In this document: piece after piece, positions 19,001 through 56,211 of the stretch
How the letters are laid out: every line of letters begins with the position of its first letter
Numbering within the stretch: the first letter of the stretch is position 1
DNA from: a virus
IMG/VR virus record: IMGVR_UViG_3300008267_000023
Coordinates: 19,218-83,217 of that record
Reading direction: 5' to 3' (one strand)
DNA: 64,000 nucleotides
Program-made: the position numbers and the translations under genes
The notes under the pieces: model-generated
What the model was told of the DNA's origin: nothing
Database searches by the model: none
Seen by the model: only the letters and a program-made list of their open reading frames with translations

Positions 19001-22000
19001 ATTCCTGGTGCAGATGGTCAGGATGGAATTTATCATTTAATTTGCCTAAGTTCAAATGTTGCACCATCAAGTAATGTAGGTTTCAATCTTGACAAAAAAC
19101 AATTTAATCAAGATGTAAAAAATCTTTATCCACAATTAGATAGGGATAATTTTGACACAAACCCAAAAGCAACAGTAAGTTATGCCGACCTAGAAGTATT
19201 AGGAAAAATTATTACTAGTGATAAGAGAAACTCAATTACACGAGAAGCAGTAAATTTCTTTGCTAAAAATGCTAAAATTGGTTATGGGTTGACAGCAGTT
19301 ACTTTAAGTGGAGTTGGAAATACTACCATAACAGTTAATACTGATGTTCAGCATAACTTAAATTCAATTAAGAGTTTTACTTTTACTCCTGGATCTGGTT
19401 ATCCAGCATCTCAGACATTATATTCTAAGCAACTTTTCCCAATTATTTCAAGTGGAGAAGGTGCTACAGTCAAGGTAACCACTGATCCATCTGGAAACAT
19501 TTCCAATGTTGAACTATTAGATGCTGGATCTGCTTACAGTGTAAATGATACTCTAAGTATCCCAGGAGGAGGAACAGCAAGCGTAGTAACGGTTACTGGA
19601 ATCAACAACAATAATAATACTGTTATTGAATTGAATGGATTCTCATCCGAAGACCTCAATAATGTATTTAAGATACAAACAATTTCAGATGCAAAATCTT
19701 TTGTACTTGCTGCCCCAACTGGTATCAGTACATATGAACCAAACACAAATGGAGAATTGCCTTATGCACTTGTCTCTGGTGAAGCATATGGAATCACATC
19801 ATCAGTTGTAAGTGACATAAGAACAGGAATTGTAACCTATACAACTTCTTCTGCTCACGGATTACTACCTGGAAATAAGGTTAGAATTGTACAAACAGGT
19901 TCTTCTATACTGAATGGTGAATTTGTTGTTCGTGAATCTGTAGGAATTAATACATTTACTATAGTTGCTTATGGTTTAACACAAACGGCATATTCATCAA
20001 CTGGTAGTGCATTAAAGAGAACATTATCACCAAATGCTAGAAATATTGGAAGAGGTGAAGAAAATCTCGGTTCTCGTGCTTCTACAATATACGATAAAAT
20101 TACAGTATACACTGACCAAATTTTTGATGGAAGCAGCAATACAATTAGTTTTGCTGACCCAACACCAGTAAAGAGAGGAGATTACTACACAATTAATTCT
20201 GAAATAATCAGAATTGCAAGTGCCTCAAATCCATTTACTGTTCTTAGAGGACAATTTGGTACGTTTAAGAATACTTCCCCAGTTGGATCTGCTGCAAGAA
20301 AAATAAAACTAATCCCAGCAGAGGTTAGAAGACCGTCATTCATGAGAGCTTCTGGTCATACATTTGAATACCTAGGTTTCGGTCCTGGTAACTATTCAAC
20401 TGGTATGCCACAAAGACAGAACAGAATTCTGTCTGAGGATGAAGTACTAACATCTCAAGCAAAAGAACAAAGAGGTGGTTCAGTAGTTTATACTGGAATG
20501 AACGACCTTGGTGAATTTTTCTCTGGAAGTAAGAAATTAAGTTCTGCAACTGGAGAGGAAAGTGTAATTGAAGCACCAATCTTAACTTATACTGGTGACG
20601 ACTCTCAAGGTGAGTCTGCAACAGTATCAAGTGGAATTTTCGATGAACTTCTTGTTCGACAAAGACTTACTGTTGAGGGTGGTGAAAATAATAACCAAGC
20701 GTCACAATTCTACGGTCCAGTAAACTTCACTCAGAAGGTAACTAACTTATCTGATTTTGGTATTGAGACAAAGAATTTATTACTCAAAGGAACAGCAGCA
20801 CAATCTAAGTTGATTACAGTTGGAATCTCAACTCCAACATCATTAACGATATCCGCACCACGTTCTGGTGATATTTCACTTCTTTCTAATCCTTCTAGTT
20901 ATATTGGTCATGTAAGAGTCAATAATGAATGGAGACCTTTTGGTTTAATTAGTAGACAACCAGATACTCTAGATATCAGAACTGATAGATTACATGTCAA
21001 TACAGTAGGGAATAGTTCATTTGATTTTGAAGTTCGTGGTGAATCAAAAGTACAAAATCTAATAGTTGATGGTCAAGTTGTTTTTACCCAACCACAAAGT
21101 TTGGGTAATGTGACATTCCAGAATGCAACTATTCAAAGAACAGCAATATTCACTGGATTGGGATTAGATCCAATTACTGGACTAACCTCCTCATATACAC
21201 AAGTCCACTTAGCAGGAATTTCACTTCTAAATGACTTAGAAGTTACTGGAATATCCACATTTGCTGGAAGAGTAGATTTTAATTCTAATATTTTTGGTGT
21301 TGGTGCAAAGTTTGGAAATATTCGTATTGGTGTTCGTGATGATAATACCATTGATACTGTTATTGGTGATTTAACAATTGATAGTGATTCTGGTACAACT
21401 AAAATTATCGATAATTTAGTTGTTAATGGCACATCTATTGAATTAAATACTGGAAGTGAAGTATCAATTGGTGGTACTATAACATCAAGACTGAATAATT
21501 CAAGAACATTTGATATTGGTATTGGAAATACGGATGGTGTTACTTCTATTTCACTACATGGTGATGATAGACTGTATGCAAATGGTGGTTTAATTGCTAG
21601 AAAAAATGCAGATCAAAGTTCTGAAATCATTCATAGAGGTGTATCTAAACTATCAATTAATGCATTAGATAGTGGTAGTGAAGTTTCTATTTTAACAGGA
21701 AATACAGAAAGAGTTCTTGTTGGCACCTCTGGAACAGTAACAATTTTCCAAAATAATTCTGGAACTGAACTAAAAGGAAATCATCTTAAGTTGACTCAAG
21801 ATGGTACTGGGGATGTTGCTTTATCTTGGGATATTACAAACAATAATGCAAACCGTCGTTGGTATGCTGGTATTGATGTAAGTGATAATTATTCTTGGAA
21901 ACTTGCAAATCCTGAAGCAACTCTTGCATATGGTTCAGAGAGTTTTGATAATCCATCAGAAACCAAATTAAAGATTTCTGGAAATGGTGATGCCATCATT

Positions 22001-45363: not shown

Positions 45364-46398
45364 ATGGATTCCCAAGACTTACGCAATCTTCACGAAGCAT
45401 ATTCTAATGTTTACGAACAGCAGATTGGTGTCCCTCTAAAGGATGCATCTGACCGTGCTGCAAAGGAACAACTTAAGAAGATGATTCCAAAGGGAGAAAA
45501 AATCCATACTCCTAAAGCAACATTACAAAATGCTGCTTATGAACCAGAAGGTGATGAGATTGAAGAGGATGTAAGAAATAGAGATATAAATGCCAGAGGT
45601 GGGTTTGACCCAAGATTTGACAAAAGACCAACAACTACTGGTAGTGGACAAGTCAGAACTCCTGGTGGACCTGTAAAAACTCCTGGTGGACCTGTAAAAA
45701 CTCCTGGTGGTCCAGTATCAACCCCAAGACCAACAGGACCAGTAGCACAAGCACCAAAACCTGCTGGTGGTATTCTTGGAACATTGGATAAGGCTGCTAG
45801 AGATACTGCAGGCAAAGTTGGTGAAGTAGTTGGTAGAGAAACAGCAAAGAGTGTTCCTGGTGCAAATCTTCCTATTCTTGGTGATGTGATTAAAAATGAA
45901 GGTGGAAGAAGAGGAAGAAATCAAGGACAACAGATGTATGATAAAGCAAAGGAAACTGTCGGTAGTTTTCTGAAGCAAGATTATGAACCAGATTTGTTTG
46001 ATGTTATTCTTGAATATCTGGTTGCAGAAGGATATGCAGATACCAATGAGAATGCATTAGTGATTATGGCAAATATGAGTGAAGAGTGGAGAGAAACTAT
46101 TCTTGAAGCAGAAGTTCTTGCTATGAAAGGTGGAGTTCCTGGTTCAGTAAAGGTTAGACCATCTTTAAGTATTCCTGGAACTAATATTGGTGTTGGTCCA
46201 AATAAACCAGTTCCTGGAACTTTTACAACCACAACTCCAGGTCAGAGAGATAAAATTAAGCAAGGTGATACTCACATTGACCGTGGTGTAGGTGGTATGC
46301 AACCAAGACAAGGTGCAGGTCCAACTGGGCAAGAAAGAAGAAGATATAATACACAAATTGCACAAAGTAGAACTCCTGGAAAACCAATGCCACAGTGA
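45364..46398 (+). CDS. putative internal head protein
   Basis: DLRNLHEAY N-terminus; DLFDVILEYLVAEGYA...MSEEW module; TAAATA upstream. Confidence 0.55.
   Translation: MDSQDLRNLHEAYSNVYEQQIGVPLKDASDRAAKEQLKKMIPKGEKIHTPKATLQNAAYEPEGDEIEEDVRNRDINARGGFDPRFDKRPTTTGSGQVRTPGGPVKTPGGPVKTPGGPVSTPRPTGPVAQAPKPAGGILGTLDKAARDTAGKVGEVVGRETAKSVPGANLPILGDVIKNEGGRRGRNQGQQMYDKAKETVGSFLKQDYEPDLFDVILEYLVAEGYADTNENALVIMANMSEEWRETILEAEVLAMKGGVPGSVKVRPSLSIPGTNIGVGPNKPVPGTFTTTTPGQRDKIKQGDTHIDRGVGGMQPRQGAGPTGQERRRYNTQIAQSRTPGKPMPQ
45658..45720 (+). repeat. in-frame 21-bp tandem repeat x3 (TPGGPVK)
   Basis: actcctggtggacctgtaaaa twice plus a degenerate third copy. Confidence 0.9.
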
Positions 46399-46454
46399 GA
46401 CCACTTCCCAAACTGTCCCCAGACCCCGCAAGGGGTCTTTTTTTGTGCTACAAT
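46399..46454 (+). promoter_or_regulatory. early promoter overlapping an intrinsic terminator
   Basis: GACCACTT..AACTGTCC dyad; agacccc-gcaa-ggggtct-T run; TGCTACAAT. Confidence 0.75.
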
Positions 46455-46475
46455 ATTCTCAATCACAAGACTCCT

Positions 46476-46883
46476 ATGGAACTTACAGTTGTTGCAATCA
46501 AACGTGAAGATGGTTTGTATCACTTTGACCATCCTCATAATGATACAGTTGAAGAACTGCTGATGAATGGAACTGAAGAAGCAATTGATGAGCATTGCTA
46601 CTTCAAGACTGGAAAGTATCCGATTGAGGGTGATGAAGTTGAGATTTCTCTCTTCCTTGAAGAACCTGCTGATTATGATACTTTGCTTGTGAAAGAAGTA
46701 TCTGATGAAGAAGGAACAACTTATACTGATACAACGATGTGTGTTCCTGTTTGGTTGTGCCCTTGGTTGCAAGGATACTTTGGTGATGTTCCTGAAGAAA
46801 TTTACATCAAAGTGCGTCCAATTAACAACGGTCTTGAGAGTTTCGTTGCTGCTACTGGTATGAGAGGTTTTTTGAATAAATAA
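46476..46883 (+). CDS. hypothetical protein
   Basis: WLCPWLQGYFGDVPEEIY motif; first gene after the promoter. Confidence 0.6.
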   Translation: MELTVVAIKREDGLYHFDHPHNDTVEELLMNGTEEAIDEHCYFKTGKYPIEGDEVEISLFLEEPADYDTLLVKEVSDEEGTTYTDTTMCVPVWLCPWLQGYFGDVPEEIYIKVRPINNGLESFVAATGMRGFLNK

Positions 46884-46900
46884 AAGAAAAAAGTAGTCAG

Positions 46901-47059
46901 ATGAAACCAACTCCAAGAGAATTGCAAGAAACTTATAAAACCTATGAAAGTCTTGTGGAGCATTTAATATCAGAGGGTTATGCAGATGATAAAGAATCTG
47001 CAGATAAGATTATTGAAGGTATGAGTCAAACCTGGTATAATCTTATCATCAACGACTGA
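46901..47059 (+). CDS. 52-aa stand-alone copy of the LxxEGYA...MSxxW module
   Basis: LVEHLISEGYADDKESADKIIEGMSQTW; ATAAATA upstream. Confidence 0.65.
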   Translation: MKPTPRELQETYKTYESLVEHLISEGYADDKESADKIIEGMSQTWYNLIIND

Positions 47060-47115
47060 GGACACTTTCGGAACTGTCCACCAGTCTTGCCAGGCACCCC
47101 AAGAGGTGCTATGAT
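47060..47115 (+). promoter_or_regulatory. early promoter
   Basis: GGACACTT..AACTGTCCAC; TTGCCA-17-TATGAT. Confidence 0.8.
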
Positions 47116-47144
47116 TACAAGGTAATCGAGAGGGGAAACCACCA

Positions 47145-47375
47145 ATGTCCTTGATTGAATTCACTAATTCTTCTGCCATCTCCAAGATTTCTTTTAATCA
47201 CGATGATGGGGAGATTGGTGTTGCTTTTACTGCTAATCCTGATAAGTATTACTACTTCCAATGTGAAGACGTAGACAACTTTATTGAAAAGTTGGAAGAA
47301 ACTGTAAATGCAAACGAGAGTCTCGGGAAGTTTATTTCTGGTCTTCGTAAAGATGGGACTTTGATTTCCGTTTGA
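47145..47375 (+). CDS. KTSC-domain protein
   Basis: SSAISKISFN...IGVAF...YYY pattern; adjacent to tRNAs. Confidence 0.6.
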   Translation: MSLIEFTNSSAISKISFNHDDGEIGVAFTANPDKYYYFQCEDVDNFIEKLEETVNANESLGKFISGLRKDGTLISV

Positions 47376-47409
47376 TTACACTGCTATTCGTTATTTGCGA
47401 ATAGCAAAT

Positions 47410-47482
47410 GCTGGTTTAGCAATCTGGCGAATGCAATCGACTCATAATCGATGGGAGGCGAGTTCGATCCTCGCAACCAGCA
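47410..47482 (+). tRNA. tRNA with CAT anticodon (Met or lysidine Ile2)
   Basis: Cloverleaf; atcga-ctCATaa-tcgat. Confidence 0.85.
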
Positions 47483-47483
47483 C

Positions 47484-47512
47484 TTGACAATCTGAGGTTC
47501 CTGCCTTATGAT
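47484..47512 (+). promoter_or_regulatory. sigma70-like promoter
   Basis: TTGACA-17-TATGAT. Confidence 0.7.
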
Positions 47513-47530
47513 TGTCATATAACCAACCAA

Positions 47531-47605
47531 GGGACTGTTGCTTATTGGTTAAAGCCCACTGCTTATAACGGTGTGAACAGAGTTCAATTCTCTGCAGTCC
47601 TACCA
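47531..47605 (+). tRNA. tRNA-Ile(TAT)
   Basis: cactg-ctTATaa-cggtg; encoded CCA. Confidence 0.85.
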
Positions 47606-47621
47606 AAAAAAAAAACTAAAT

Positions 47622-47705
47622 GGGAGCGTGGCGGAATCGGTAGACGCATCTGACTTAAAATCAGCTGGGAGTAGTCCCGTGGGAGTTCAAGTCTCCCCGT
47701 TCCTA
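47622..47705 (+). tRNA. tRNA-Leu(TAA)
   Basis: Long variable arm; ctTAAaa. Confidence 0.9.
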
Positions 47706-47756
47706 CTTGCCCGAAAGGGCAAATCGTACAATCTAACTTATAGAATTATCTAACTT

Positions 47757-48338
47757 ATGATTACGACTGAAAGATTCAAAAAAATCTGTGAAACAGAATT
47801 TGACTGGAACATGATTTTTGGGGCAGTGAAAGATGCCTACAATGATAAAGGATTTAAGAGCAATTCAGATAACTTTTTGCGAGCAAAGGTATTTGAACTT
47901 GCTATTGCTTGCTTCTCCCAAGTTGAATACATTGACGAAGATGGAGTTGACTTTCTCCTGAAAGTTCTTGGAGACTGTATTCGAATTGAAGCAAAGTTCC
48001 TCAAGGGTTTCTTTAAGAAGGACGGAACTTGCAAAGAAGTAAAAATGAAAAATTATCGGGGAGATGTAACTGAGGTTGCTTTTAACCGATATCAAACTGA
48101 AAATAAATTTGATTATGTAATGATTATTGACCGTGATTCATATAAGGTTGCGATTGCTTCCCGTGAAACGGCACAAAAGTATTATGTGAGCAAAGGTGAT
48201 GGAGTGATGGTGCAGTTTCCTATCAATGAACTCAGTGTTCTTGATTTGGATATTGCAAACTTTACTTTCCCAGAATCACCTGATAGACTGTCTGACCTCC
48301 TTCGGGAAACAATGATTAACTGGATTAAAAATAGATGA
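47757..48338 (+). CDS. PD-(D/E)XK nuclease, restriction-endonuclease-like
   Basis: E...DGVDF...IEAK catalytic pattern; ATGA overlap with the MTase. Confidence 0.6.
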   Translation: MITTERFKKICETEFDWNMIFGAVKDAYNDKGFKSNSDNFLRAKVFELAIACFSQVEYIDEDGVDFLLKVLGDCIRIEAKFLKGFFKKDGTCKEVKMKNYRGDVTEVAFNRYQTENKFDYVMIIDRDSYKVAIASRETAQKYYVSKGDGVMVQFPINELSVLDLDIANFTFPESPDRLSDLLRETMINWIKNR

Positions 48339-49174
48339 AACAATTCCCATTAAAGACTATGCTCCGTTACCCTGGAGGCAAGAGTAAAGCACTAAAGACT
48401 CTTGCTCCTTGGTTTCCGAGTGACTTCAAAGAGTTCCGTGAACCATTCTTGGGTGGTGGAAGCATTTCTTTAATGATTTCTCAAAACTACCCAAAGGTTC
48501 CTATTTGGGTGAATGACAAATACTTTTATCTCTATAACTTCTGGGTTCAACTTCGTGATAATGGTCAAACATTATCGGAAAGGTTGAGAGCAATCAAAGA
48601 AGAAGTAAATGGAGATGATGAAGCACATAAAGACTTGTTCAATCGGTATCAGAGTGACATTGAAACTCTTGAACCTTTTGAACAAGCAATTGCTTTTTTC
48701 ATTCTAAACAAGTGTTCTTATTCTGGTTTGACTGAGAATTCTACATTCTCAGTTCAAGCATCACGTTCTAACTTTTCTCTTGTTGGTATTGACAAACTTC
48801 CAAAGTATTCATACATCATTAAAAACTGGAAAATCACAAACATTGATTATGAACCAGTGATGAACGATGCTGGTGATAACGTATTTGTCTTTCTTGACCC
48901 TCCTTACGACATTAAAGATTTCCTTTATGGAACGGGAAGGAAACTACACTCCTCATTCTCACACGAAAGATTTGCGGATGATGTAGATAATTGTCCTCAT
49001 CGTTTTATGATTACTTACAACCTTAATGATTGGTTGTTGAATCGTTATAAAGAGTATAATCTTAACGAGTGGAAACTTAGATACTCTATGGTTCACCGTG
49101 GAGAGAAGGGAACTCAAGACAATGTGAAGACAGAATTGCTAATTACCAATTACCAACAAGATTCGATTATATAA
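48335..49174 (+). CDS. dam: Dam-family DNA adenine methyltransferase
   Basis: LRYPGGKS, EPFLGGGS, FLDPPY, ELLITNY. Confidence 0.92.
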   Translation: MKQFPLKTMLRYPGGKSKALKTLAPWFPSDFKEFREPFLGGGSISLMISQNYPKVPIWVNDKYFYLYNFWVQLRDNGQTLSERLRAIKEEVNGDDEAHKDLFNRYQSDIETLEPFEQAIAFFILNKCSYSGLTENSTFSVQASRSNFSLVGIDKLPKYSYIIKNWKITNIDYEPVMNDAGDNVFVFLDPPYDIKDFLYGTGRKLHSSFSHERFADDVDNCPHRFMITYNLNDWLLNRYKEYNLNEWKLRYSMVHRGEKGTQDNVKTELLITNYQQDSII

Positions 49175-49203
49175 ATAAAATATATAAGAATTATACAAAA
49201 CCA

Positions 49204-49899
49204 ATGGATTATAAGGACCTGCAAAATCTTTCCAACCTAACAAGACAAGTTTTGTCTGAATCAAATCAACCAAAAGAGTCATATTTGGATAAGTGGCCCT
49301 ATACTTCTCCATATCTTGAAGAAGAAGTTATTGATGAAGAGAGAGCAGAGGGTGTAAAACCATATCGTCCAACTATGTCTCAGGCAGAAGTTAGGGCAGA
49401 TGCAAAGAAAGCTCGTGAAAAGCACTTAAAAAGTGCTGAAGGAAAAACTGGTTATGGTCCTGAAGAGAAGTTTAAGGATTGGAAAGATAAAGCAACCCCA
49501 GGTTCAACTCTCAAGAGAAAGGGTGGAGAAGAGGAAACTGTTTCACAAAGAATGGACCGTGAAAAGCCTTATGGTAAGAGAATGACTGGTCCTCTTGCTA
49601 GAGCACAAGGAAGTCGTACTGCTTCTGCTGTAACAAGAACAACCGAGGGTCCAGGAGAACCTCAAGCAGTTACAATGCCTAGAAAAGGTAGAGAAGAAGC
49701 ACCAAAGAAAAAGGCAAAGCCTTCTAGAGAAATTATCCGTAGAGCAAAGACAGAAGAAAGCTTCGATCTTTATGATCTAATTCTTGCACACCTAGTTAGT
49801 GAAGGATTTGCTGAGACTCCAAAAGCAGCAGTTGCAATTATGAGCAACATGAGTGAAGCATGGGTAGACAGCATTGTTGACTACTACATCGAAGGTTGA
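49204..49899 (+). CDS. putative internal head protein
   Basis: TATAAATA late promoter; C-terminal DLYDLILAHLVSEGFA...MSEAW module. Confidence 0.55.
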   Translation: MDYKDLQNLSNLTRQVLSESNQPKESYLDKWPYTSPYLEEEVIDEERAEGVKPYRPTMSQAEVRADAKKAREKHLKSAEGKTGYGPEEKFKDWKDKATPGSTLKRKGGEEETVSQRMDREKPYGKRMTGPLARAQGSRTASAVTRTTEGPGEPQAVTMPRKGREEAPKKKAKPSREIIRRAKTEESFDLYDLILAHLVSEGFAETPKAAVAIMSNMSEAWVDSIVDYYIEG

Positions 49900-49926
49900 C
49901 TTTTTTCTAAAAACCTGGTATAAATA
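49896..49926 (+). promoter_or_regulatory. overlapping sigma70-like and T4 late promoter
   Basis: TTGACT-17-TATAAA, with TATAAATA at 49919. Confidence 0.7.
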
Positions 49927-49945
49927 AAACATACAACATAAAACA

Positions 49946-50047
49946 ATGACTAACCTTCATACACAACCAAAGAGTGATTATAATCCCATTACCTGCTGGT
50001 TTATGGGAGAATCCCTCTTGGTTGCAAATGTGGTAAGTCAAAGTTAA
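49946..50047 (+). CDS. leader peptide (33 aa) of putative tRNA-array attenuator
   Basis: MTNLHTQPKSDYNPITCWFMGESLLVANVVSQS; overlaps alternative RNA stems. Confidence 0.65.
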   Translation: MTNLHTQPKSDYNPITCWFMGESLLVANVVSQS

Positions 50048-50071
50048 CAGAACAAACCATAAAAGCAATCA

Positions 50072-50106
50072 AGAGGGAGAATCCAAAAGGTTCTCCCTCT
50101 TTTTTT
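50072..50106 (+). terminator. intrinsic terminator (attenuator 3:4 hairpin)
   Basis: agagggagaatc-caaaa-ggttctccctct followed by a T run. Confidence 0.85.
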
Positions 50107-50113
50107 ATGCCTT

Positions 50114-50171
50114 GTGCCACTTGTTCAACTGGTCGTATCATTTGCCACTGGGGTCCAAACCCTGGTATATT
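50114..50171 (+). promoter_or_regulatory. early promoter P1 of the tRNA array
   Basis: GTGCCACTT..AACTGGTC; TTGCCA-18-TATATT with extended TG. Confidence 0.7.
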
Positions 50172-50209
50172 ACATGAGTCGGTGGGGGAACGAGACCCCA
50201 AACTGCCAA

Positions 50210-50266
50210 GTCCACTTTCGGAACTGGCACAACCCACTTGCCCCGCAACGGGTTCCGTGGTATTCT
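50210..50266 (+). promoter_or_regulatory. early promoter P2 of the tRNA array
   Basis: GTCCACTT..AACTGGCAC; TTGCCC-17-TATTCT with extended TG. Confidence 0.7.
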
Positions 50267-50272
50267 TAAGGA

Positions 50273-50309
50273 GTGGTTGAGAGACCACCAGCACCTTGAC
50301 AACTGAATA
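50273..50309 (+). promoter_or_regulatory. boxB/boxA-like antitermination signal
   Basis: GAGA-tetraloop hairpin, then GCACCTTGACAACTGAATA resembling cyanobacterial rrn boxA. Confidence 0.55.
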
Positions 50310-50324
50310 ATTACCACATTATAT

Positions 50325-50396
50325 GGGTCTGTAACTCAATGGTAGAGTAACGGGCTTTTAACCTGGAAGTTGTGAGTTCGAGCCTCACCAGACCCA
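50325..50396 (+). tRNA. tRNA-Lys(TTT)
   Basis: Cloverleaf; ctTTTaa. Confidence 0.9.
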
Positions 50397-50434
50397 TTGA
50401 CCGCCGCAGTTCGGTCATTAAATATCAACTGTTC

Positions 50435-50516
50435 GGGTAGGTGTCCGAGTGGTTAATGGAGGCGGACTGTAAATCCGCTGGCTCTGCCTACGGGGGTTCA
50501 AATCCCTCCCTGCCCA
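50435..50516 (+). tRNA. tRNA-Tyr(GTA)
   Basis: gcgga-ctGTAaa-tccgc; long variable arm. Confidence 0.92.
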
Positions 50517-50520
50517 CCTT

Positions 50521-50593
50521 GACCTTGTAACTCAGTGGTTAGAGTGCTACCCTGTCACGGTAGAAGTCGTGGGTTCAAGTCCCATCAAGGTCG
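50521..50593 (+). tRNA. tRNA-Asp(GTC)
   Basis: ctacc-ctGTCac-ggtag. Confidence 0.92.
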
Positions 50594-50594
50594 T

Positions 50595-50753
50595 TGTTAC
50601 ACTGCCGATGGAGTATCCCTCCTTGGTGGTTGTAGCACGTTATCCTGAATGTTGCCAGTTAGGTAAGGAATAACGTAGCGAGAAACTGGAAGAGGGGAGG
50701 AAGTGGAAGCCGTTGATTTTAAATCAACTTAGAGGTGCATTTGCTTCTTCCTC
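50595..50753 (+). ncRNA. structured spacer RNA (hairpin, pseudoknot, long hairpin)
   Basis: Multiple complementary stems, many with G-U pairs. Confidence 0.5.
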
Positions 50754-50758
50754 ATCAA

Positions 50759-50831
50759 GGTCCTATCGTCTAGAGGCCAAGGACATCACTCTTTCACAGT
50801 GAAGACACGGGTTCAAATCCCGTTAGGACTA
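50759..50831 (+). tRNA. tRNA-Glu(TTC)
   Basis: tcact-ctTTCac-agtga. Confidence 0.92.
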
Positions 50832-50835
50832 CCTT

Positions 50836-50909
50836 GGGAACATAGCTCCAACTGGTAGAGCACAGGGCTGAAGACCTTGGTGTTGTCGGTTCAAATCCGA
50901 CTGTTCCCA
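50836..50909 (+). tRNA. tRNA-Phe(GAA)
   Basis: caggg-ctGAAga-ccttg. Confidence 0.9.
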
Positions 50910-50911
50910 CT

Positions 50912-51047
50912 TGGGTTGTTGCCCGATATGAAAAACACTTCTAGTTACTTTAGCGGGTAACAATAGTTGTGAAAAATCGGAATTACCCCTGCCCGTTCTC
51001 TTCGGGATGCGAATTGGGGAAAGGCAAAGGGAAGAGACAACAACCCA
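50912..51047 (+). ncRNA. structured multi-branch spacer RNA
   Basis: 10-bp closing stem tgggttgttg/caacaaccca enclosing two arms. Confidence 0.5.
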
Positions 51048-51051
51048 TATT

Positions 51052-51123
51052 GGAACCGTAGCTCAGTGGTAGAGCACTCGGCTGATAACCGAGCGGTCAC
51101 AAGTTCAAATCTTGTCGGTTCCA
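51052..51123 (+). tRNA. tRNA-Ile(GAT)
   Basis: ctcgg-ctGATaa-ccgag. Confidence 0.92.
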
Positions 51124-51142
51124 TTCCCTTTATGGGAAACTC

Positions 51143-51232
51143 GGAAGTGTGGCAGAGAGGTCTAATGCAGTGGATTGCTAATCCGCCGATGTTCTTTAAG
51201 GGCATCCGTTGGTTCGAATCCAACCACTTCCG
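51143..51232 (+). tRNA. tRNA-Ser(GCT)
   Basis: ttGCTaa; long variable arm. Confidence 0.92.
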
Positions 51233-51235
51233 TTT

Positions 51236-51309
51236 GGCAGTATAGCTCAGTCTGGCAGAGCACGGGTCTCATATGCCTATGGTCGATAGTTCAAATCTAT
51301 CTACTGCCT
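51236..51309 (+). tRNA. tRNA-Met(CAT)
   Basis: Cloverleaf; ctCATat. Confidence 0.85.
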
Positions 51310-51310
51310 T

Positions 51311-51382
51311 GTGTCGTTAGCCTAGTGGTTAAGGCAGTAGTTTGTGGAACTACCTAGATGAGTTCAATTCTCATACGACACC
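51311..51382 (+). tRNA. tRNA-His(GTG)
   Basis: gtagt-ttGTGga-actac; C73. Confidence 0.9.
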
Positions 51383-51384
51383 CC

Positions 51385-51462
51385 GTTTAGGTGGCAGAGT
51401 GGTCAAATGCAACAGTCTGCAAAACTGTAAAACCGTGGGTTCGAATCCCACCCTAAACTCCA
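51385..51462 (+). tRNA. tRNA-Cys(GCA)
   Basis: acagt-ctGCAaa-actgt; U73, encoded CCA. Confidence 0.92.
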
Positions 51463-51463
51463 A

Positions 51464-51535
51464 TCCAGAATCGACTAACTGGCAGGTCACCACCCTTTGA
51501 AGGTGTTCGTCTGGGTTCGAATCCTAGTTCTGGAA
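51464..51535 (+). tRNA. tRNA-Gln(TTG)
   Basis: ctTTGaa; cloverleaf. Confidence 0.88.
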
Positions 51536-51539
51536 CTAT

Positions 51540-51620
51540 GCCCCTGTGGTGAAATGGTAGACACAGTTGACTCAAAATCAACCGCAGAAATGCATGTCGG
51601 TTCGAATCCGACTGGGGGCA
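51540..51620 (+). tRNA. tRNA-Leu(CAA)
   Basis: gttga-ctCAAaa-tcaac. Confidence 0.9.
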
Positions 51621-51625
51621 CCTAA

Positions 51626-51697
51626 GCAGGATTGGTGTAATTGGTAGCACGAGAGTCTCCAAAACTTTTAGTAGAGGTTCAAGTCCTCTATCCTGTG
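51626..51697 (+). tRNA. tRNA-Trp(CCA)
   Basis: agagt-ctCCAaa-acttt. Confidence 0.9.
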
Positions 51698-51700
51698 CTT

Positions 51701-51774
51701 GTTCTCTTAACTCAGTGGAATAGAGTGCTTGGCTACGAACCAAGAAGTCGGAGGTTCAAATCCTCCAGAGAACG
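51701..51774 (+). tRNA. tRNA-Arg(ACG)
   Basis: cttgg-ctACGaa-ccaag. Confidence 0.92.
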
Positions 51775-51775
51775 C

Positions 51776-51804
51776 TTGACAATCTATGCTACATATAGTA
51801 TGAT
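51776..51804 (+). promoter_or_regulatory. internal sigma70-like promoter
   Basis: TTGACA-17-TATGAT. Confidence 0.7.
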
Positions 51805-51813
51805 TGTTATATT

Positions 51814-51898
51814 GGAAAGGTGGTCGAGTGGTTGAAGGCTCTAGTCTTGAAAACTAGCGATGTGAAAGCATCCGTGGGTTCGAATCCCACCCTTTCCG
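51814..51898 (+). tRNA. tRNA-Ser(TGA)
   Basis: ctagt-ctTGAaa-actag. Confidence 0.92.
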
Positions 51899-51918
51899 TT
51901 GCTCCTTGTGAGCAAAAT

Positions 51919-51992
51919 GCCTCCGTAGCTCAGCTGGATAGAGCAACGGTTTTGTAAACCGTAGGTCGTCGGTTCAAGTCCGACCGTGGGCT
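51919..51992 (+). tRNA. tRNA-Thr(TGT)
   Basis: acggt-ttTGTaa-accgt. Confidence 0.92.
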
Positions 51993-52020
51993 TGACAGAA
52001 TTTCAATTCTGTCTTACACT
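51992..52020 (+). promoter_or_regulatory. internal sigma70-like promoter
   Basis: TTGACA-17-TACACT. Confidence 0.6.
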
Positions 52021-52071
52021 TCTTTAGTCCGTGTGAAGGAAGTGAGTTGAGGAAGAAATTCCTCAACATTT

Positions 52072-52146
52072 GCGAAAGTAACTCAACGGTAGAGTCCCTG
52101 CCTTCCAAGCAGGTTGTTGCGAGTTCGAATCTCGTCTTTCGCTCCA
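52072..52146 (+). tRNA. tRNA-Gly(TCC)
   Basis: cctgc-ctTCCaa-gcagg; encoded CCA. Confidence 0.92.
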
Positions 52147-52218
52147 GGGAAATTAACTCAGTGGTAGAGTGGCCTCCTTACAAGTGGTAAGTCACTGGTT
52201 CGAATCCAGTATTTCCCA
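52147..52218 (+). tRNA. tRNA-Val(TAC)
   Basis: ctTACaa; cloverleaf. Confidence 0.9.
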
Positions 52219-52249
52219 TTAACAATATACATATATTGTTAAACAAACT

Positions 52250-52323
52250 CGGGATGTAGCGCAGCTTGGTAGCGCATCTGTTTTGGGAACAGAGGGTCGT
52301 AGGTTCGAATCCTATCATCCCGA
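52250..52323 (+). tRNA. tRNA-Pro(TGG)
   Basis: tctgt-ttTGGga-acaga. Confidence 0.92.
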
Positions 52324-52348
52324 CTTGAAACAATTTTCTTTTAATTAT

Positions 52349-52960
52349 ATGGACACAATTCACTATCTTTATAAAGAAAATTGTTTCAGTCAATCCGAAT
52401 TGGATTTGATTTTTGATGAGTTAAACTTTTTAAATAATCCATTAATTCTTGAGGGTCCAGAAGTAACTGGTTCAGCAGAAAAAAATGGTTCTTTCAAGAA
52501 GAAGAATAAAGGTGTTTGGGTGAGTGATTTTTACACAAATCCACATAAAACATCTTTATGGAGATTAACTAGAAAAGTTTTAGATAATTATATATTAGAT
52601 TATAGTCAATTGCACTATTCAAATAGAGCAGTGCTAAATACAAATTACTCTAAAACATTATTATCTTATTATGAAAATGCAGATTGTTATGAACCACATA
52701 CTGATTCTGCATCAGTAACAGTGTTATTTTGGTTTTTCAAAGAACCAAAGCATTTTGATGGGGGAGACCTCATTCTTAATGATATTGGAAAAACATTTGA
52801 AGTACAAAATAACTCAATGTTGATGTTTCCTTCTTGGGCAAAACATTCTGTTACTGAAGTAAAAATGGATGAAAAGTATTTAAATCAAAAATTGGGTAGA
52901 TACTCAATTACAATGTTTATGCATATTCATCCACATTATGATTATATTTCTAACAAATGA
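52349..52960 (+). CDS. 2OG-Fe(II) oxygenase
   Basis: HTD...FDGGDL...FPSWAKHSV...RYSIT; start at MDTIHY. Confidence 0.85.
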   Translation: MDTIHYLYKENCFSQSELDLIFDELNFLNNPLILEGPEVTGSAEKNGSFKKKNKGVWVSDFYTNPHKTSLWRLTRKVLDNYILDYSQLHYSNRAVLNTNYSKTLLSYYENADCYEPHTDSASVTVLFWFFKEPKHFDGGDLILNDIGKTFEVQNNSMLMFPSWAKHSVTEVKMDEKYLNQKLGRYSITMFMHIHPHYDYISNK

Positions 52961-53124
52961 AAATAAATCTCTGGTACTGTAAAGATATGGGTCAGTGGAG
53001 GTGGTCATTAACTGATGATTCCCGACCAATCGTTAAGCAGGAAACTGGTCAACAACCAGATTTACGAGTTGCAATGAATGACATTGCAAACACTGTTGAA
53101 TATATGCTTTCTAAGGAAAGTTAA
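52957..53124 (+). CDS. hypothetical protein (55 aa)
   Basis: MKINLWYCKDMGQWRWSL...; ATGA overlap. Confidence 0.6.
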   Translation: MKINLWYCKDMGQWRWSLTDDSRPIVKQETGQQPDLRVAMNDIANTVEYMLSKES

Positions 53125-53130
53125 TTTTAT

Positions 53131-53202
53131 TCCCCTATAGCTCAACGGCAGAGCAGAGAGCTGTTAACTCTAAGGTTCCTCGTTCGAATCGAGGTGGGGG
53201 AG
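53131..53202 (+). tRNA. tRNA-Asn(GTT)
   Basis: ctGTTaa; cloverleaf. Confidence 0.9.
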
Positions 53203-53227
53203 TTGGAAGTCCTAGGTCTTCCAAACT

Positions 53228-53328
53228 GAAAATGCTGGACAAACTTCGGGGGTACAAATCCTTGCAAGGTCTCCCTGCCCATTACCTGGTGGTTCCTGAG
53301 AACAGGAAGAATAAGGTCTGGTGTTTTC
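53228..53328 (+). ncRNA. structured spacer RNA, possibly manA-motif related
   Basis: 13-bp closing stem gaaaatgctggac/gtctggtgttttc with internal hairpins. Confidence 0.45.
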
Positions 53329-53331
53329 TTT

Positions 53332-53413
53332 GTCGATGTGGCGGAATTGGTAGACGCGCTGGGTTTAGGTTCCAGTGAAGTAATTCGTGGAGGTTCAAGT
53401 CCTCTCATCGATA
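53332..53413 (+). tRNA. tRNA-Leu(TAG)
   Basis: ctggg-ttTAGgt-tccag. Confidence 0.92.
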
Positions 53414-53445
53414 TTAGGATTTTTATCCTAAATAAAAAAAAAAAC

Positions 53446-53518
53446 GGGGAATTAGCTCAGTTGGTAGAGCAGGGTCTTTGCAAGGCCAAGGTCAGGAGTT
53501 CGAGTCTCCTATTCTCCA
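53446..53518 (+). tRNA. tRNA-Ala(TGC)
   Basis: G3:U70; ttTGCaa. Confidence 0.92.
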
Positions 53519-53540
53519 TTAACCAATTGCGTAGGGAAGT

Positions 53541-53981
53541 ATGGAACTTCAAACGATTGGGTCAAAGGTTTTAAGAGAAAAAGCAAAAAGAGTAGCAAAT
53601 ATTGATGATACCATAAGGTATCTTTGTTTTAATATGGCAAAGACCATGAGAGAGAAAAATGGTATTGGTATTGCTGCTCCTCAAGTTGGTGTAAGTAAAA
53701 GAATTATAATTGTTGATAATAAAGGAAAAGACTGGATTTTAATCAATCCAGAAATAGTATGGAAAAGTGATACCCTTGTTAATTTTGAAGAAGGATGTCT
53801 AAGTGTTCCTGGTGTTTTTGATAATGTGAAAAGACCAGAATCAATAAAGATTAAATATAGAAACGCAAAGGGAAAACCAATCTTCGAAAAAGTAGATGGT
53901 TTATTGTCGAGAATTGTTCAACATGAGATTGACCATTTAGATGGAGTTTTATTTGTTGACTATTTGAAAGAAAAAGAGTAA
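53541..53981 (+). CDS. def: peptide deformylase
   Basis: GIGIAAPQVG, EGCLS, HEIDHLDG. Confidence 0.95.
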   Translation: MELQTIGSKVLREKAKRVANIDDTIRYLCFNMAKTMREKNGIGIAAPQVGVSKRIIIVDNKGKDWILINPEIVWKSDTLVNFEEGCLSVPGVFDNVKRPESIKIKYRNAKGKPIFEKVDGLLSRIVQHEIDHLDGVLFVDYLKEKE

Positions 53982-53990
53982 TATATAAAG

Positions 53991-54226
53991 TGTTCAAGAG
54001 GATGGGAATTCTGATGTTTCGGACTGGGGTTCGATTCCCCACATCTCCATTTCAGGGGGATGTACTGGTTTCGACGGGGCATAAAGGTCTTATCTGTTGA
54101 CGGGACAAACAAACAAACAAACGCAGCGAATAAAATCGTCAAGTTCACTCGTCAGTCTGCACCTGTTGCAGTTTGACTCTAAATGAGTGGAGGGGGTTAT
54201 AAGTTTCCTTCTTACCCAAAACTTAC
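53991..54226 (+). ncRNA. ssrA: circularly permuted (two-piece) tmRNA
   Basis: T-arm + CATCTCCA (54025-54049) precedes GGGGATGTA..GGTTTCGAC (54056); G3:U70; tag ANKIVKFTRQSAPVAV* (54126-54176); downstream pseudoknot. Confidence 0.9.
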
Positions 54227-54228
54227 AT

Positions 54229-54249
54229 AGGGGTGCAATGCCCCTTTTA
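54229..54249 (+). terminator. intrinsic terminator after tmRNA
   Basis: aggggt-gcaat-gcccct followed by Ts. Confidence 0.7.
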
Positions 54250-54288
54250 TTTTATAAATACTCAAGAATTATTCATTTTAGAAAGTTC

Positions 54289-54453
54289 ATGAAGTCACTC
54301 ACATTAACTGTAAACAATATTGCTCCTTTCTTTGTTGCAGCAGTAGTCTCCGCATCGACTGCTTTCATTGGATTTGGTTTTTATCATGGGACCTTCCATA
54401 TGAATGCAAATCAAGCACACTGCCACCAAGATGGAGTTTGTCACAATCACTGA
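54289..54453 (+). CDS. small membrane peptide with His/Cys-rich tail
   Basis: TM segment then HCHQDGVCHNH; TATAAATA at 54253. Confidence 0.6.
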   Translation: MKSLTLTVNNIAPFFVAAVVSASTAFIGFGFYHGTFHMNANQAHCHQDGVCHNH

Positions 54454-54603
54454 GGTAAATTATGAAATTTGTTATCATTGCAATTCTTTCTAGTGTTGTT
54501 TCTATTGTGACATGGGAAAGTTTACATGTTGTTTATCATATTGATGGACCCAAAGAAGAAGTGATTAGTAAAAAAATAAATAATTAAAATTCGAATTAAA
54601 ACA

Positions 54604-54852
54604 ATGGGAAGATTTACTGATTTATTCCAAGAAAATCAACCAGCAGAAGAAGTTTTTGCTCCTGCACCAGTAGCAGAATCAGTAGAGGTATCTGCACCTG
54701 TAGTTGAAGTTACGGAACTCTCTGCACCAGAAGCAGTTGTGGAAGAAAATGAAATTTTCAATCCAAATGCTAGAGACAGAGATGGTGATGGTCTTGTTCA
54801 GGAAGGAACAATTCACGAAAGACCAGTATCAAAGAAAACAAAAAAATACTGA
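54604..54852 (+). CDS. hypothetical acidic protein
   Basis: DRDGDGLVQEGT (DxDxDG loop). Confidence 0.55.
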   Translation: MGRFTDLFQENQPAEEVFAPAPVAESVEVSAPVVEVTELSAPEAVVEENEIFNPNARDRDGDGLVQEGTIHERPVSKKTKKY

Positions 54853-54909
54853 GGACAGTCGGGCAACCGTCCACTGAAGTCCCCAACCCAGTCCGAGTCG
54901 TGCTATGAT
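54853..54909 (+). promoter_or_regulatory. early promoter
   Basis: GGACAGT..AACCGTCCAC; TGCTATGAT at the 48-bp offset. Confidence 0.75.
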
Positions 54910-54931
54910 TACTAGGTAATCAAAGAGGTGC

Positions 54932-55069
54932 ATGACTCGGATTTTTCTTGACGAATCGCAAATTGAAGAACTCGACAACTTTGATATTTACGAAGATTTA
55001 GAAGATATTTTTACTGAAGAACCAGTTGCCGAAGATGACTGGTTTGGTGTTGATGACCCTGAAATCTGA
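54932..55069 (+). CDS. highly acidic 45-aa peptide
   Basis: GAGGTG RBS; 18 D/E and 1 R. Confidence 0.65.
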   Translation: MTRIFLDESQIEELDNFDIYEDLEDIFTEEPVAEDDWFGVDDPEI

Positions 55070-55082
55070 TTTTTAATTTATT

Positions 55083-55493
55083 ATGTCTACTCGTTCACGT
55101 ATCGGCATCGAACTCAAGAACGGTTCTGTGCTTTCTGTGTATCACCACTGGGATGGTTATCCCGAATGGTTGGGTCGCATTCTCAACACTCACTACAACA
55201 CTCGGGAGAAAGTTGCTGAGTTGATTGATGGTGGTGACATGAGTTCCTGCTGGACTGAAGACCGTTGGAATAGTGAGACTAAAGCACAAGAATATGGTCC
55301 TCAATACTACTCTCAACGTGGTCAAGATTGTCCTCCACGGCACGATGAGACTCTGACAGAGTATTTGTCTGATGGTGAGGAATACGCATACCTCTTCAAT
55401 CGCAATGGTGAGTGGGTGTGCTATACTATGAATTGTTATGAACAAAAACTTCCAGAAATTATTGAAATCCCCTCTACTGCTCTTCACGTCTGA
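55083..55493 (+). CDS. conserved phage hypothetical protein
   Basis: MSTRSRIG...YHHWDGYP...EEYAYLF. Confidence 0.7.
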   Translation: MSTRSRIGIELKNGSVLSVYHHWDGYPEWLGRILNTHYNTREKVAELIDGGDMSSCWTEDRWNSETKAQEYGPQYYSQRGQDCPPRHDETLTEYLSDGEEYAYLFNRNGEWVCYTMNCYEQKLPEIIEIPSTALHV

Positions 55494-55496
55494 TTT

Positions 55497-55688
55497 ATGA
55501 AAACTTCTACTGCTCTTGGTCTCACCTTTGGTGTAATTGTTCTTGCTGTTGCTGCTCTATTTTTTGAAGCAGCACTGCTTGGATTGATTTTGTCTTGGTT
55601 TAATGTTTCATTGACCATCTGGCAAAATCTTGCTATCGTATTTCTTGCTAATCTTATTTTCAAACCCACTGGAGGTTCTTCGAAATGA
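55497..55688 (+). CDS. small membrane protein
   Basis: Two hydrophobic segments. Confidence 0.55.
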   Translation: MKTSTALGLTFGVIVLAVAALFFEAALLGLILSWFNVSLTIWQNLAIVFLANLIFKPTGGSSK

Positions 55689-55803
55689 TTACTACACTTA
55701 TGGCAGGATTTGCTTTTGGTTATTGTGTAATGGATATTATCTTAAATTATCGTGCTCGTCGTATTATGGACGAACTTCTTGAATCTACTCTGGAGAATGA
55801 CAA

Positions 55804-56211
55804 ATGAAACAACAAAACGGATTTATTGACCCTGCTATCGTTGCTATTTCTGTTGGTGTGATTGTAATTGGTGGTCTCATCTTTATTGGTGGTCCACAAT
55901 ATAATGTGTGGCAACAATCTCTTGCTGGTAAAGCAGAACTTCAGAAAGCAGAGTATACTCGTCAGGTAGCAGTTCTGGAAGCACAAGCAAAGAAAGATAG
56001 TGCTCAACAACTTGCCGATGCTGAAATCATCCGTGCTACTGGTGTTGCTAAGGCAAACCAAATCATCGGTGATTCACTGAAGGACAACCGTGAGTATCTT
56101 CAGTATCTGTATATCACTGGTATCGAAGATGGTGCCAAGAATGGTAATGTGACCATTTATGTTCCAACTGAAGGTGGTATGCCTGTTCCTACACTTCAAA
56201 TGAATAAGTGA
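55804..56211 (+). CDS. membrane protein with SPFH/band-7-like coiled coil
   Basis: TM + AELQKAE...IRATGVAKAN...YLQYL. Confidence 0.65.
   Translation: MKQQNGFIDPAIVAISVGVIVIGGLIFIGGPQYNVWQQSLAGKAELQKAEYTRQVAVLEAQAKKDSAQQLADAEIIRATGVAKANQIIGDSLKDNREYLQYLYITGIEDGAKNGNVTIYVPTEGGMPVPTLQMNK

Follow-up and report, generated by a model that had tools for sequence, protein, structure and literature searches.

Organization of the leader region upstream of the tRNA array

This study investigated a short leader element that precedes an array of tRNA genes in an uncultured T4-like cyanomyovirus. The window, by which we mean the whole 64,000-nucleotide stretch of DNA that was analyzed, comprises positions 19,218 to 83,217 of the 83-kb IMG/VR virus record IMGVR_UViG_3300008267_000023, and near-identical DNA is present in freshwater metagenomes. 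The element consists of a late promoter motif, a short open reading frame (ORF), and an intrinsic terminator, and is followed by the tRNA genes (Table 1). A preliminary description, made from the DNA letters alone, had interpreted it as an attenuator of the array. Its positions for the dual promoter and the ORF were recovered here, as were a strong terminator 3' of the ORF, the 22 downstream tRNA genes, and two sigma-70-like consensus matches beyond the terminator.

The ORF of the window is predicted to encode the peptide MTNLHTQPKSDYNPITCWFMGESLLVANVVSQS. Together with the TATAAA that follows it, the TTGACT hexamer may constitute a sigma-70-type promoter that overlaps the late one. The terminator stem of the window contains 13 pairs, including 6 G-C pairs (-19.9 kcal/mol), and lies 218 nt from tRNA-Lys, the first gene of the array. 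From its 5' end, the array reads Lys(UUU)-Tyr-Asp-Glu-Phe-Ile-Ser(GCU)-Met-His-Cys-Gln-Leu-Trp-Arg(ACG), and the core tRNA order in the relatives is the same as that in the window.

Table 1. Positions of the leader element, its predicted pairing segments, and the adjoining features in the window.
Feature	Position	Strand	Remarks
-35-like hexamer TTGACT	49897..49902	+	17 nt upstream of TATAAA; also in W- and B-type relatives
T4-type late promoter motif TATAAATA	49920..49927	+	19 nt upstream of the leader ATG
Leader ORF, 33 codons and TAA	49946..50047	+	ATG 49946, TAA 50045-50047
Segment 1, 5' side of the hairpin formed by the whole ORF (fold I)	49947..49979	+	Minimum free energy (MFE) fold; fold I covariation (81 sequences)
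Central hairpin at the fold I tip (tcccat/atggga and acc/ggu)	49984..50008	+	MFE fold
Segment 2	50010..50040	+	3' strand of fold I and 5' strand of the predicted antiterminator
Leader stop codon	50045..50047	+	Tip of the predicted antiterminator hairpin
Segment 3, 3' strand of the predicted antiterminator	50050..50078	+	Last 8 nt (50071-50078) form the base of the terminator 5' arm
Intrinsic terminator	50071..50108	+	13-bp stem 50071-50083 / 50089-50101, 5-nt loop, T run
Two sigma-70-like promoter matches, GTGCCA-16-TATCAT and TTGCCA-18-TATATT	50114..50171	+	Consensus matches only
Hairpin followed by CCAGCACCTTGACAA, boxB/boxA-like	50272..50302	+	Just 5' of tRNA-Lys; motif common to relatives
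tRNA array, 22 genes	50324..53518	+	Putative regulated unit

Conservation of the element and its association with tRNA-Lys

To collect relatives, we used a pattern that comprised only the motif preceding tRNA-Lys and the 5' end of the tRNA, and contained neither the ORF nor the promoter. This pattern matched 21 viral loci (17 unique), every one of which carried the late promoter, the ORF, and the terminator. Two further patterns without any tRNA sequence raised the set to 83 unique elements, and the promoter, ORF, and terminator were kept in all 83 variants, including those of phages S-PM2 and S-CREM1. A tRNA gene on the same strand followed the terminator at a distance of 51-604 nt (median 124) in 82/82 elements with enough downstream DNA; in 79 of these elements the first tRNA was tRNA-Lys(UUU), and opposite-strand tRNAs numbered 0/1222. 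In S-PM2 and S-CREM1, the same arrangement stands before a syntenic Lys-Tyr-Asp-Glu... array.

The late promoter bases T-A-T-A-x-A-T were invariant in 81/81 aligned homologs, and the distance from the TATAAATA-type late motif to the homologous ATG was 19-22 nt in the variants listed. The same motif has been applied to T4-like cyanophages in PMC3037559. The motif and the short, fixed distance would thus place the leader in a T4-type late transcription unit. The terminator was found in every relative, with a stability of -17.8 to -23.2 kcal/mol in eight representatives; that of S-PM2d is located near position 108,990.

The leader-terminator family is, as judged from sequence searches, restricted in distribution. 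When the element was compared by blastn with 50,697 phage records, the S-PM2 query recovered S-PM2 itself only, and the window query recovered nothing. The leader is absent upstream of the second S-PM2 tRNA cluster, of the Met-Ile-Leu cluster in the window, and of the S-RSM4 and S-SKS1 arrays. A search of positions 46000-56000 against Rfam 15 (cmscan, E <= 1) returned tRNAs, tmRNA, and chance matches only; the sole match on the element was sraL, which at 25.4 bits fell below its gathering score of 39.

Two mutually exclusive folds

The RNA of the element can adopt two alternative structures. The MFE of a 183-nt stretch was -60.7 kcal/mol (z = -7.5), a value that 0/200 dinucleotide shuffles equaled. 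Fold I, common to the window, S-PM2, and S-CREM1, combines an imperfect hairpin of the whole ORF with the terminator. In the window, the inner part of segment 1 (49964-49979) pairs with 50010-50024 and the outer part (49947-49955) with 50032-50040. The 1:2 pairings of the preliminary description are contained in this fold, namely caaccaaagag (from 49964) with ctcttggttg (from 50015) and tcccat (from 49984) with atggga (from 50003). The hairpin at the tip may serve as a pause hairpin; the equivalent helix 6 of the alignment was 87% paired, with changes on both sides at 5 pairs.

In fold II, the 3' third of the ORF pairs with the spacer after the stop codon and with the first 7-9 nt of the terminator 5' arm. 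The complementarity of ccctcttggttgc (50013-50025) to gcaatcaagaggg (50065-50077), reported earlier as a 13-bp helix, is real, but the helix is longer: 50012-50039 pairs against 50050-50078 (about -30 kcal/mol), and the tip holds the stop codon. Its 5' strand occupies 50012-50025, 50029-50034, and 50038-50039 of segment 2, in which ccctctt is a copy of the base of the terminator 3' arm. An alignment-free duplex search found a fold II duplex of -25 to -36 kcal/mol in every family. The 5' strand of the duplex ended -3 to +4 nt from the stop codon in 82/85 variants (the exceptions being 9 nt in two variants and 53 nt in one), and the stop codon lay 22-31 nt from the terminator stem in 84/85.

Both folds are supported by covariation. 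Structures were projected from one member, L009, onto a MAFFT alignment of 81 sequences. For fold II, 78% of the cells were paired, compared with 41-60% in slid controls; double-change cells numbered 100, compared with 11-50, and 0/500 shuffles reached the score. In this alignment, the helix onto the terminator 5' arm (2:3b) was 91% paired, and three of its pairs showed double changes: 103:174 (UA 54 / CG 24), and 105:172 and 107:170 (CG 63 / UA 14). The corresponding values for fold I were 81% paired cells compared with 42-48% in slid controls, and 246 double-change cells compared with 89-137. These counts are somewhat inflated by the projection from L009 and by the relatedness of the sequences; nevertheless, the slid controls, a swap test, and individual compensations agree. 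In the swap test, cognate 2:3 strands averaged -29.2 kcal/mol and non-cognate strands -20.3 kcal/mol; for 1:2, the values were -26.0 and -17.0 kcal/mol. Among the compensations, ATGGT:ACCAT is replaced by ATGAT:ATCAT in L137 and ATGGA:TCCAT by ATGGT:ACCAT in L122; a further clear case was found in L031, and in L074 the hairpin is entirely replaced with the stop codon still at its tip.

The same nucleotides are therefore under two sets of pairing constraints, which is the pattern predicted by an RNA switch. Judged from these pairings, the 1:2, 2:3, and 3:4 helices are mutually exclusive, and 2:3 would sequester the terminator 5' arm, which is the geometry of a trp-type attenuator. The three-part anatomy suggested in the preliminary description is thus conserved, with covariation in both alternative folds.

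Proposed mechanism and folding tests

We propose, with moderate confidence, that the element is a ribosome-dependent leader-peptide attenuator that gates entry into the main tRNA array for transcription that starts at the late promoter or arrives from late genes further upstream. Late transcription would probably enter the tRNA genes only when ribosomes decode slowly. The comparative evidence supports the attenuator architecture well; the dependence on ribosomes and the nature of the signal are inferred.

According to this model, segment 1 of an untranslated RNA would fold on segment 2, the start region would be sequestered, and the terminator would form, as in the trp model. A ribosome that moved smoothly to the stop codon would occupy the 5' strand of the antiterminator, and the terminator would form again; that the stop codon is placed for a terminating ribosome to block the antiterminator is suggested by geometry only. 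A ribosome delayed at approximately codons 6-18 would cover segment 1, so that segment 2 could pair with the spacer and with the basal part of the terminator 5' arm, and the polymerase would read into tRNA-Lys and the array. The outer pairing of fold I covers the start region, which is paired with codons 29-32; ribosomes may therefore have only a brief period in which to load. As the array is also served by predicted promoters of its own, the attenuator would not be the sole control but would contribute late transcription of a conditional kind.

We examined the model through equilibrium folding. In the full-length RNA, the terminator was favored (P about 0.97). When a ribosome footprint was masked with the A site at codons of approximately 6-18, the antiterminator became the favored structure in the window (P up to 0.93), L006, and L009. 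This folding check, of the kind suggested in the preliminary description, thus predicts a switch for these three elements but not for the S-PM2, S-CREM1, L004, L007, L010, and L067 types, which kept the terminator at every ribosome position.

The latter result weighs against the model, as do several others. An RNA cut before the 3' arm favored the antiterminator even without a ribosome, and the antiterminator reaches only the basal 7-9 nt of the 13-bp terminator stem. Single codons would be weak sensors relative to the codon runs of classical attenuators, and the predicted promoters of the array itself lie directly 3' of the terminator. The terminator retained in several types and the antiterminator in the cut RNA imply that the switch has to be kinetic. 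The cut-RNA result also leaves thermodynamics unable to distinguish the classical logic from one where an untranslated RNA would give read-through.

Metatranscriptome contigs from four runs cover the leader. In one study, the contigs end at 50108, just past the T run, with no cover to 50380, whereas in another study they bridge the terminator; contigs do not reveal transcript ends or strand and may reflect DNA carry-over, and these neither prove nor exclude read-through. Contigs also run unbroken from the upstream late ORF into the leader, suggesting that upstream late transcripts probably meet the attenuator as well. This upstream ORF encodes 231 residues (49204-49899), and its terminal TGA overlaps the TTGACT box.

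Composition of the leader and the tRNA block

The preliminary description had proposed that nearly all codons of the leader differ by design and that the leader mirrors the first tRNA block. Its tally was accurate, with 26 distinct codons among the first 27 and 19/20 amino acids covered. The first proposal was not upheld as a conserved feature. In the permutation test against shuffled ORFs, the window was only marginal in amino-acid diversity (P = 0.018) and in distinct codons (P = 0.05), and the latter count was significant nowhere else. Whole-ORF amino-acid diversity reached P ~0.02 only in the window, L006, and L067 and was ordinary in S-PM2, S-CREM1, L007, and L062; leaders of the S-PM2, S-CREM1, L004, L007, and L062 types repeat codons freely. 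The search before related tRNA arrays recovered the ORF and the covarying 2:3 and 3:4 stems, but not a conserved codon diversity, and we dropped the idea of an all-different codon design as a conserved trait. Set beside windows of the phage proteome, the leaders were extreme: their 32-33 residues included a median of 19 different amino acids, whereas the proteome windows averaged 14.1.

The second proposal fared better. We defined the stall window as the codons from codon 2 up to the C-run of segment 2 and compared it with the first contiguous tRNA block. No family has a leader with a run of codons for one amino acid; stall windows hold 11-18 different amino acids in 19-22 codons. In the window, the recall of block amino acids was 0.78, compared with 0.57 for nucleotide-shuffled ORFs (P = 0.0085), and the same test gave P <= 0.013 in 10/12 family representatives. 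Overall, 91% of the amino acids of its own block were present in a stall window, compared with 87% for permuted blocks and ~54% in proteome windows; the Jaccard overlap with own and permuted blocks was 0.715 vs 0.656 overall and 0.730 vs 0.693 within the B family. A crude test of the whole leader against all tRNAs within 4 kb revealed a trivial effect (0.814 vs 0.799). Stall-window diversity was high in the families with large blocks (W and B, P 0.0002-0.04) and ordinary in those with small blocks.

Some individual residues also followed the block. In the B family, Pro in the leader co-occurred with tRNA-Pro in the block (counts 20/2/1/11; Fisher P = 3e-6). Arg codons of the stall window were CGN in 56/56 cases (26% in phage usage), matching the block tRNA-Arg(ACG), and internal Ser codons were AGY in 67/78 (30% in phage usage), matching the block tRNA-Ser(GCU). 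The L007 block comprises eight tRNAs without Met, His, and Trp, and M, H, and W have also been lost from its stall window. With no single-codon run and approximately one codon for most first-block amino acids, the likely signal is slow decoding by that set of tRNAs, and late in infection the attenuator would give a multivalent feedback on the supply of tRNA.

In its weaker form, this reading holds that the leader is multivalent and samples the amino acids represented in the tRNA block, and for this the statistical support is moderate. Its stronger form, which we advance only as a tentative possibility, is that the leader is a multivalent gauge of the phage tRNA pool with approximately one codon per first-block tRNA, including the minor Arg CGN and Ser AGY codons. 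Loss or shortage of any one of these tRNAs would hold up the leading ribosome and thereby open the terminator, so that late promoters would drive more transcription of the entire array. If so, the shortage could arise from late-infection decay, host tRNA down-regulation, or anticodon nucleases. Other results count against such a gauge. The Cys, Trp, Phe, Tyr, Thr, and Met content of the leader does not track the presence of the matching block tRNAs, and the leader and the array are tightly linked, with leader/block statistics that ignore phylogeny. Many codons are, moreover, frozen at synonymous sites, so that a large share of the peptide, with its CGC and AGY codons, could be set by RNA structure alone.

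The lack of covariation for these six amino acids would also fit an attenuator that is a plain gauge of translation speed or coupling, in which the terminator would open whenever the leading ribosome slowed for any reason and the likeness of leader and block is a by-product of RNA constraints and shared ancestry. Such a gauge would also account for the near-random whole-ORF codon and amino-acid diversity of most families, for the frozen synonymous sites, and for ordinary codon adaptation: rare codons were not enriched, and the codon adaptation index was at the 24th percentile for the leader and at the 41st for the stall window. Stall-sensing leader-ORF attenuators without codon runs exist, an example being bmrCD (PMC4191407). 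We nevertheless regard this explanation as unlikely, because it does not predict the block recall above the shuffled-ORF null, the covariation of Pro with tRNA-Pro, the exclusive or predominant use of the minor CGN and AGY families, or the parallel loss of M, H, and W in L007.

Coding potential of the leader ORF

Several features suggest that the leader ORF is a short translatable ORF between the promoter and the tRNA genes, and its translation is predicted. The frame is open and intact at 28-34 codons in 85/85 unique variants. Gap runs were multiples of 3 in 5/8 cases inside the ORF compared with 3/27 in the flanks, and the three non-triplet runs inside the ORF were all at its stop-codon end. 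An AGG lies 9 nt upstream of the ATG in most families, and the distance of the ATG from the promoter is fixed. The ratio of nonsynonymous to synonymous polymorphism (pN/pS) was 0.29-0.62, and numerous codons showed no variation even in their synonymous positions; together, these values indicate strong selection at the RNA level and weak or indistinct selection at the protein level. Frame +1 is also open in 52/85 variants, so that an open frame alone is weak evidence of coding. In L040 (IMGVR_UViG_3300032270_001483, near 7006), the frame is broken after DCRY and extends to 42 codons, owing to an error in sequencing or to a frameshift that occurs naturally.

The pN/pS values, together with the conserved motifs D-[CY]-R..W and [ST]-[PL]-L-x-A, would also be expected of an ordinary small late gene for a microprotein of ~33 residues, with a late promoter of its own, a constitutive terminator that insulates the tRNA operon, hairpins that serve mRNA stability or translation timing, and unregulated read-through. 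Where the leader has been called at all, it is annotated as a hypothetical protein (SCREM1_59 in S-CREM1 and one IMG entry), its start region is paired in fold I, and the array has its own promoters. We consider this explanation quite unlikely, however: the peptide fits no Pfam or PHROG family, its composition resembles that of a random ORF rather than a protein, and the peptides diverge strongly between families while the pairings are kept. A microprotein would also leave unexplained the covariation of segment 2 with the terminator arm and the placement of the stop codon at the tip.

A switch or stable RNA that acts independently of ribosomes (a ~175-nt late transcript acting in trans, an RNase III-type processing site between the late mRNA and the tRNA precursor, or a switch driven by a protein, tRNA, or temperature) would fit the long imperfect duplexes (~30 bp) of both folds, the open frame +1, and the trans roles of attenuator RNAs such as rnTrpL (PMC7968998), but is very improbable given the frame-keeping indels, the fixed ATG-promoter distance with AGG 9 nt upstream, the stop codon locked to the hairpin tip, and the absence of a T-box or other Rfam match.

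In S-PM2, the leader region is annotated as the reverse-strand ORF S-PM2d160 (118 residues; L001 2207-2563, minus strand), which covers tRNA-Arg(TCT), the late promoter, and the entire leader. This ORF is most likely a mis-annotation, and it would be corrected if the leader reading is true.

Comparison with known regulatory systems

Leader-peptide attenuators control amino-acid operons of enterobacteria, as in trpL, hisL, and pheL and the multivalent thrL and ilvGMEDA leaders. The element has in common with trp-type leaders a short promoter-proximal ORF that is followed, ahead of the genes to be controlled, by an intrinsic terminator. In both, three pairings compete and the antiterminator draws on the terminator 5' arm, the stop codon is placed for a terminating ribosome to block the antiterminator, and termination is predicted whether translation is absent or runs smoothly. 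The element differs from trp-type leaders in its output, which would be tRNA genes and not biosynthetic enzymes, and in its T4-like phage setting behind a late promoter. It also has single codons for ~12-17 amino acids and no tandem regulatory run, an antiterminator in the form of a ~30-bp hairpin tipped by the stop codon, and a regulated unit with promoters of its own. T-box riboswitches likewise link transcription antitermination to the state of tRNA, but they bind uncharged tRNA directly and have no leader ORF. A T-box identity was rejected, no T-box model having matched in the Rfam search described above. The kinetics of leader-peptide attenuation have been treated in a review (PMC1183508).

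By our analysis, the nearest classical relatives would be the multivalent thr and ilvGMEDA leaders, and the nearest in signal would be stall-sensing leaders similar to bmrCD. As outlined in PMC4191407, bmrCD of B. subtilis combines a leader ORF and a terminator/antiterminator with general ribosome slowing as the signal, as proposed here; leaders of this type, however, sense ribosome-targeting drugs and control transporters or rRNA methylases, whereas the phage output would be tRNA, and the composition of the phage leader would mirror that output.

We regard the trn L-array of Anabaena sp. PCC 7120 as the nearest published functional precedent; this tRNA operon is silent until translation comes under stress, which induces it (PMC8421152, PMC10272220). 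Both are supernumerary tRNA arrays of the cyanobacterial world with expression tied to impaired translation, putatively so in the phage. Control of the Anabaena array differs in that it is exerted by a labile ribbon-helix-helix repressor, TrcR, at promoter direct repeats, and the words attenuator, leader, and terminator are absent from PMC8421152. Full-text literature searches found no description of the present element and no published trp-style attenuator for tRNA genes. The small ORFs in the S-PM2d phosphate-stress paper belong to the other tRNA operon and not to the leader operon.

To our knowledge, almost nothing is known about how phage tRNA arrays are regulated. If the proposed attenuator is real, the phage would measure decoding performance directly and feed the result back on tRNA synthesis, and a textbook bacterial mechanism would gain a new output (tRNA genes), a T4-like late setting, and a multivalent codon design. 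Such arrays are usually discussed as compensation for codon usage or as a shield against host defenses that target tRNA (PMC10264068, PMC11555353), and host tRNA supply is described as able to decide cyanophage success (PMC11726456). Since the element is present in a cultured system, S-PM2 / Synechococcus WH7803, the idea is directly testable, and an infection RNA-seq time course exists for this pair (3, 6, and 9 h; PMC10976474).

Features adjoining the element

An A/T-rich dyad, GACTTTT...AAAAGTC, abuts the late promoter in most families (49897-49919 in the window; also L009, L023, and L001); the S-PM2 version is GAGTTT...AAACTC.

Downstream of the leader, the terminator loop of S-CREM1 (L002 2395-2445) and of C-type relatives (L004, L008, L010, and L018) contains TTGACA or TTGCAA, and past the T run lies TGCTATGAT or TATTGT, correctly spaced. 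In these phages, the same DNA appears to encode the leader terminator and the predicted -35/-10 elements of an array promoter ~52-68 nt before tRNA-Lys. The window (50163-50290) and several relatives (L006, L009) carry ~100 extra nt between the terminator and tRNA-Lys compared with S-PM2, and this DNA resembles a tandem second copy of a module made up of a GGTAT(A/T)(T/C)T -10-like box and a G+C-rich hairpin.

Directly 5' of tRNA-Lys, a GNRA-capped hairpin is followed by CCAGCACCTTGA(C/A)AA, which is exact in the 21 viral loci and in S-PM2 and S-CREM1. In sequence, this motif resembles the boxB/boxA antitermination signal of cyanobacterial rrn operons; if it is such a signal, the array transcripts could become termination-resistant. 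At the end of the tRNA region lies a cyanobacterial-type permuted tmRNA (53960-54267; cyano_tmRNA, 133 bits), with the tag AANKIVKFTRQSAPVAV as predicted by ARAGORN.

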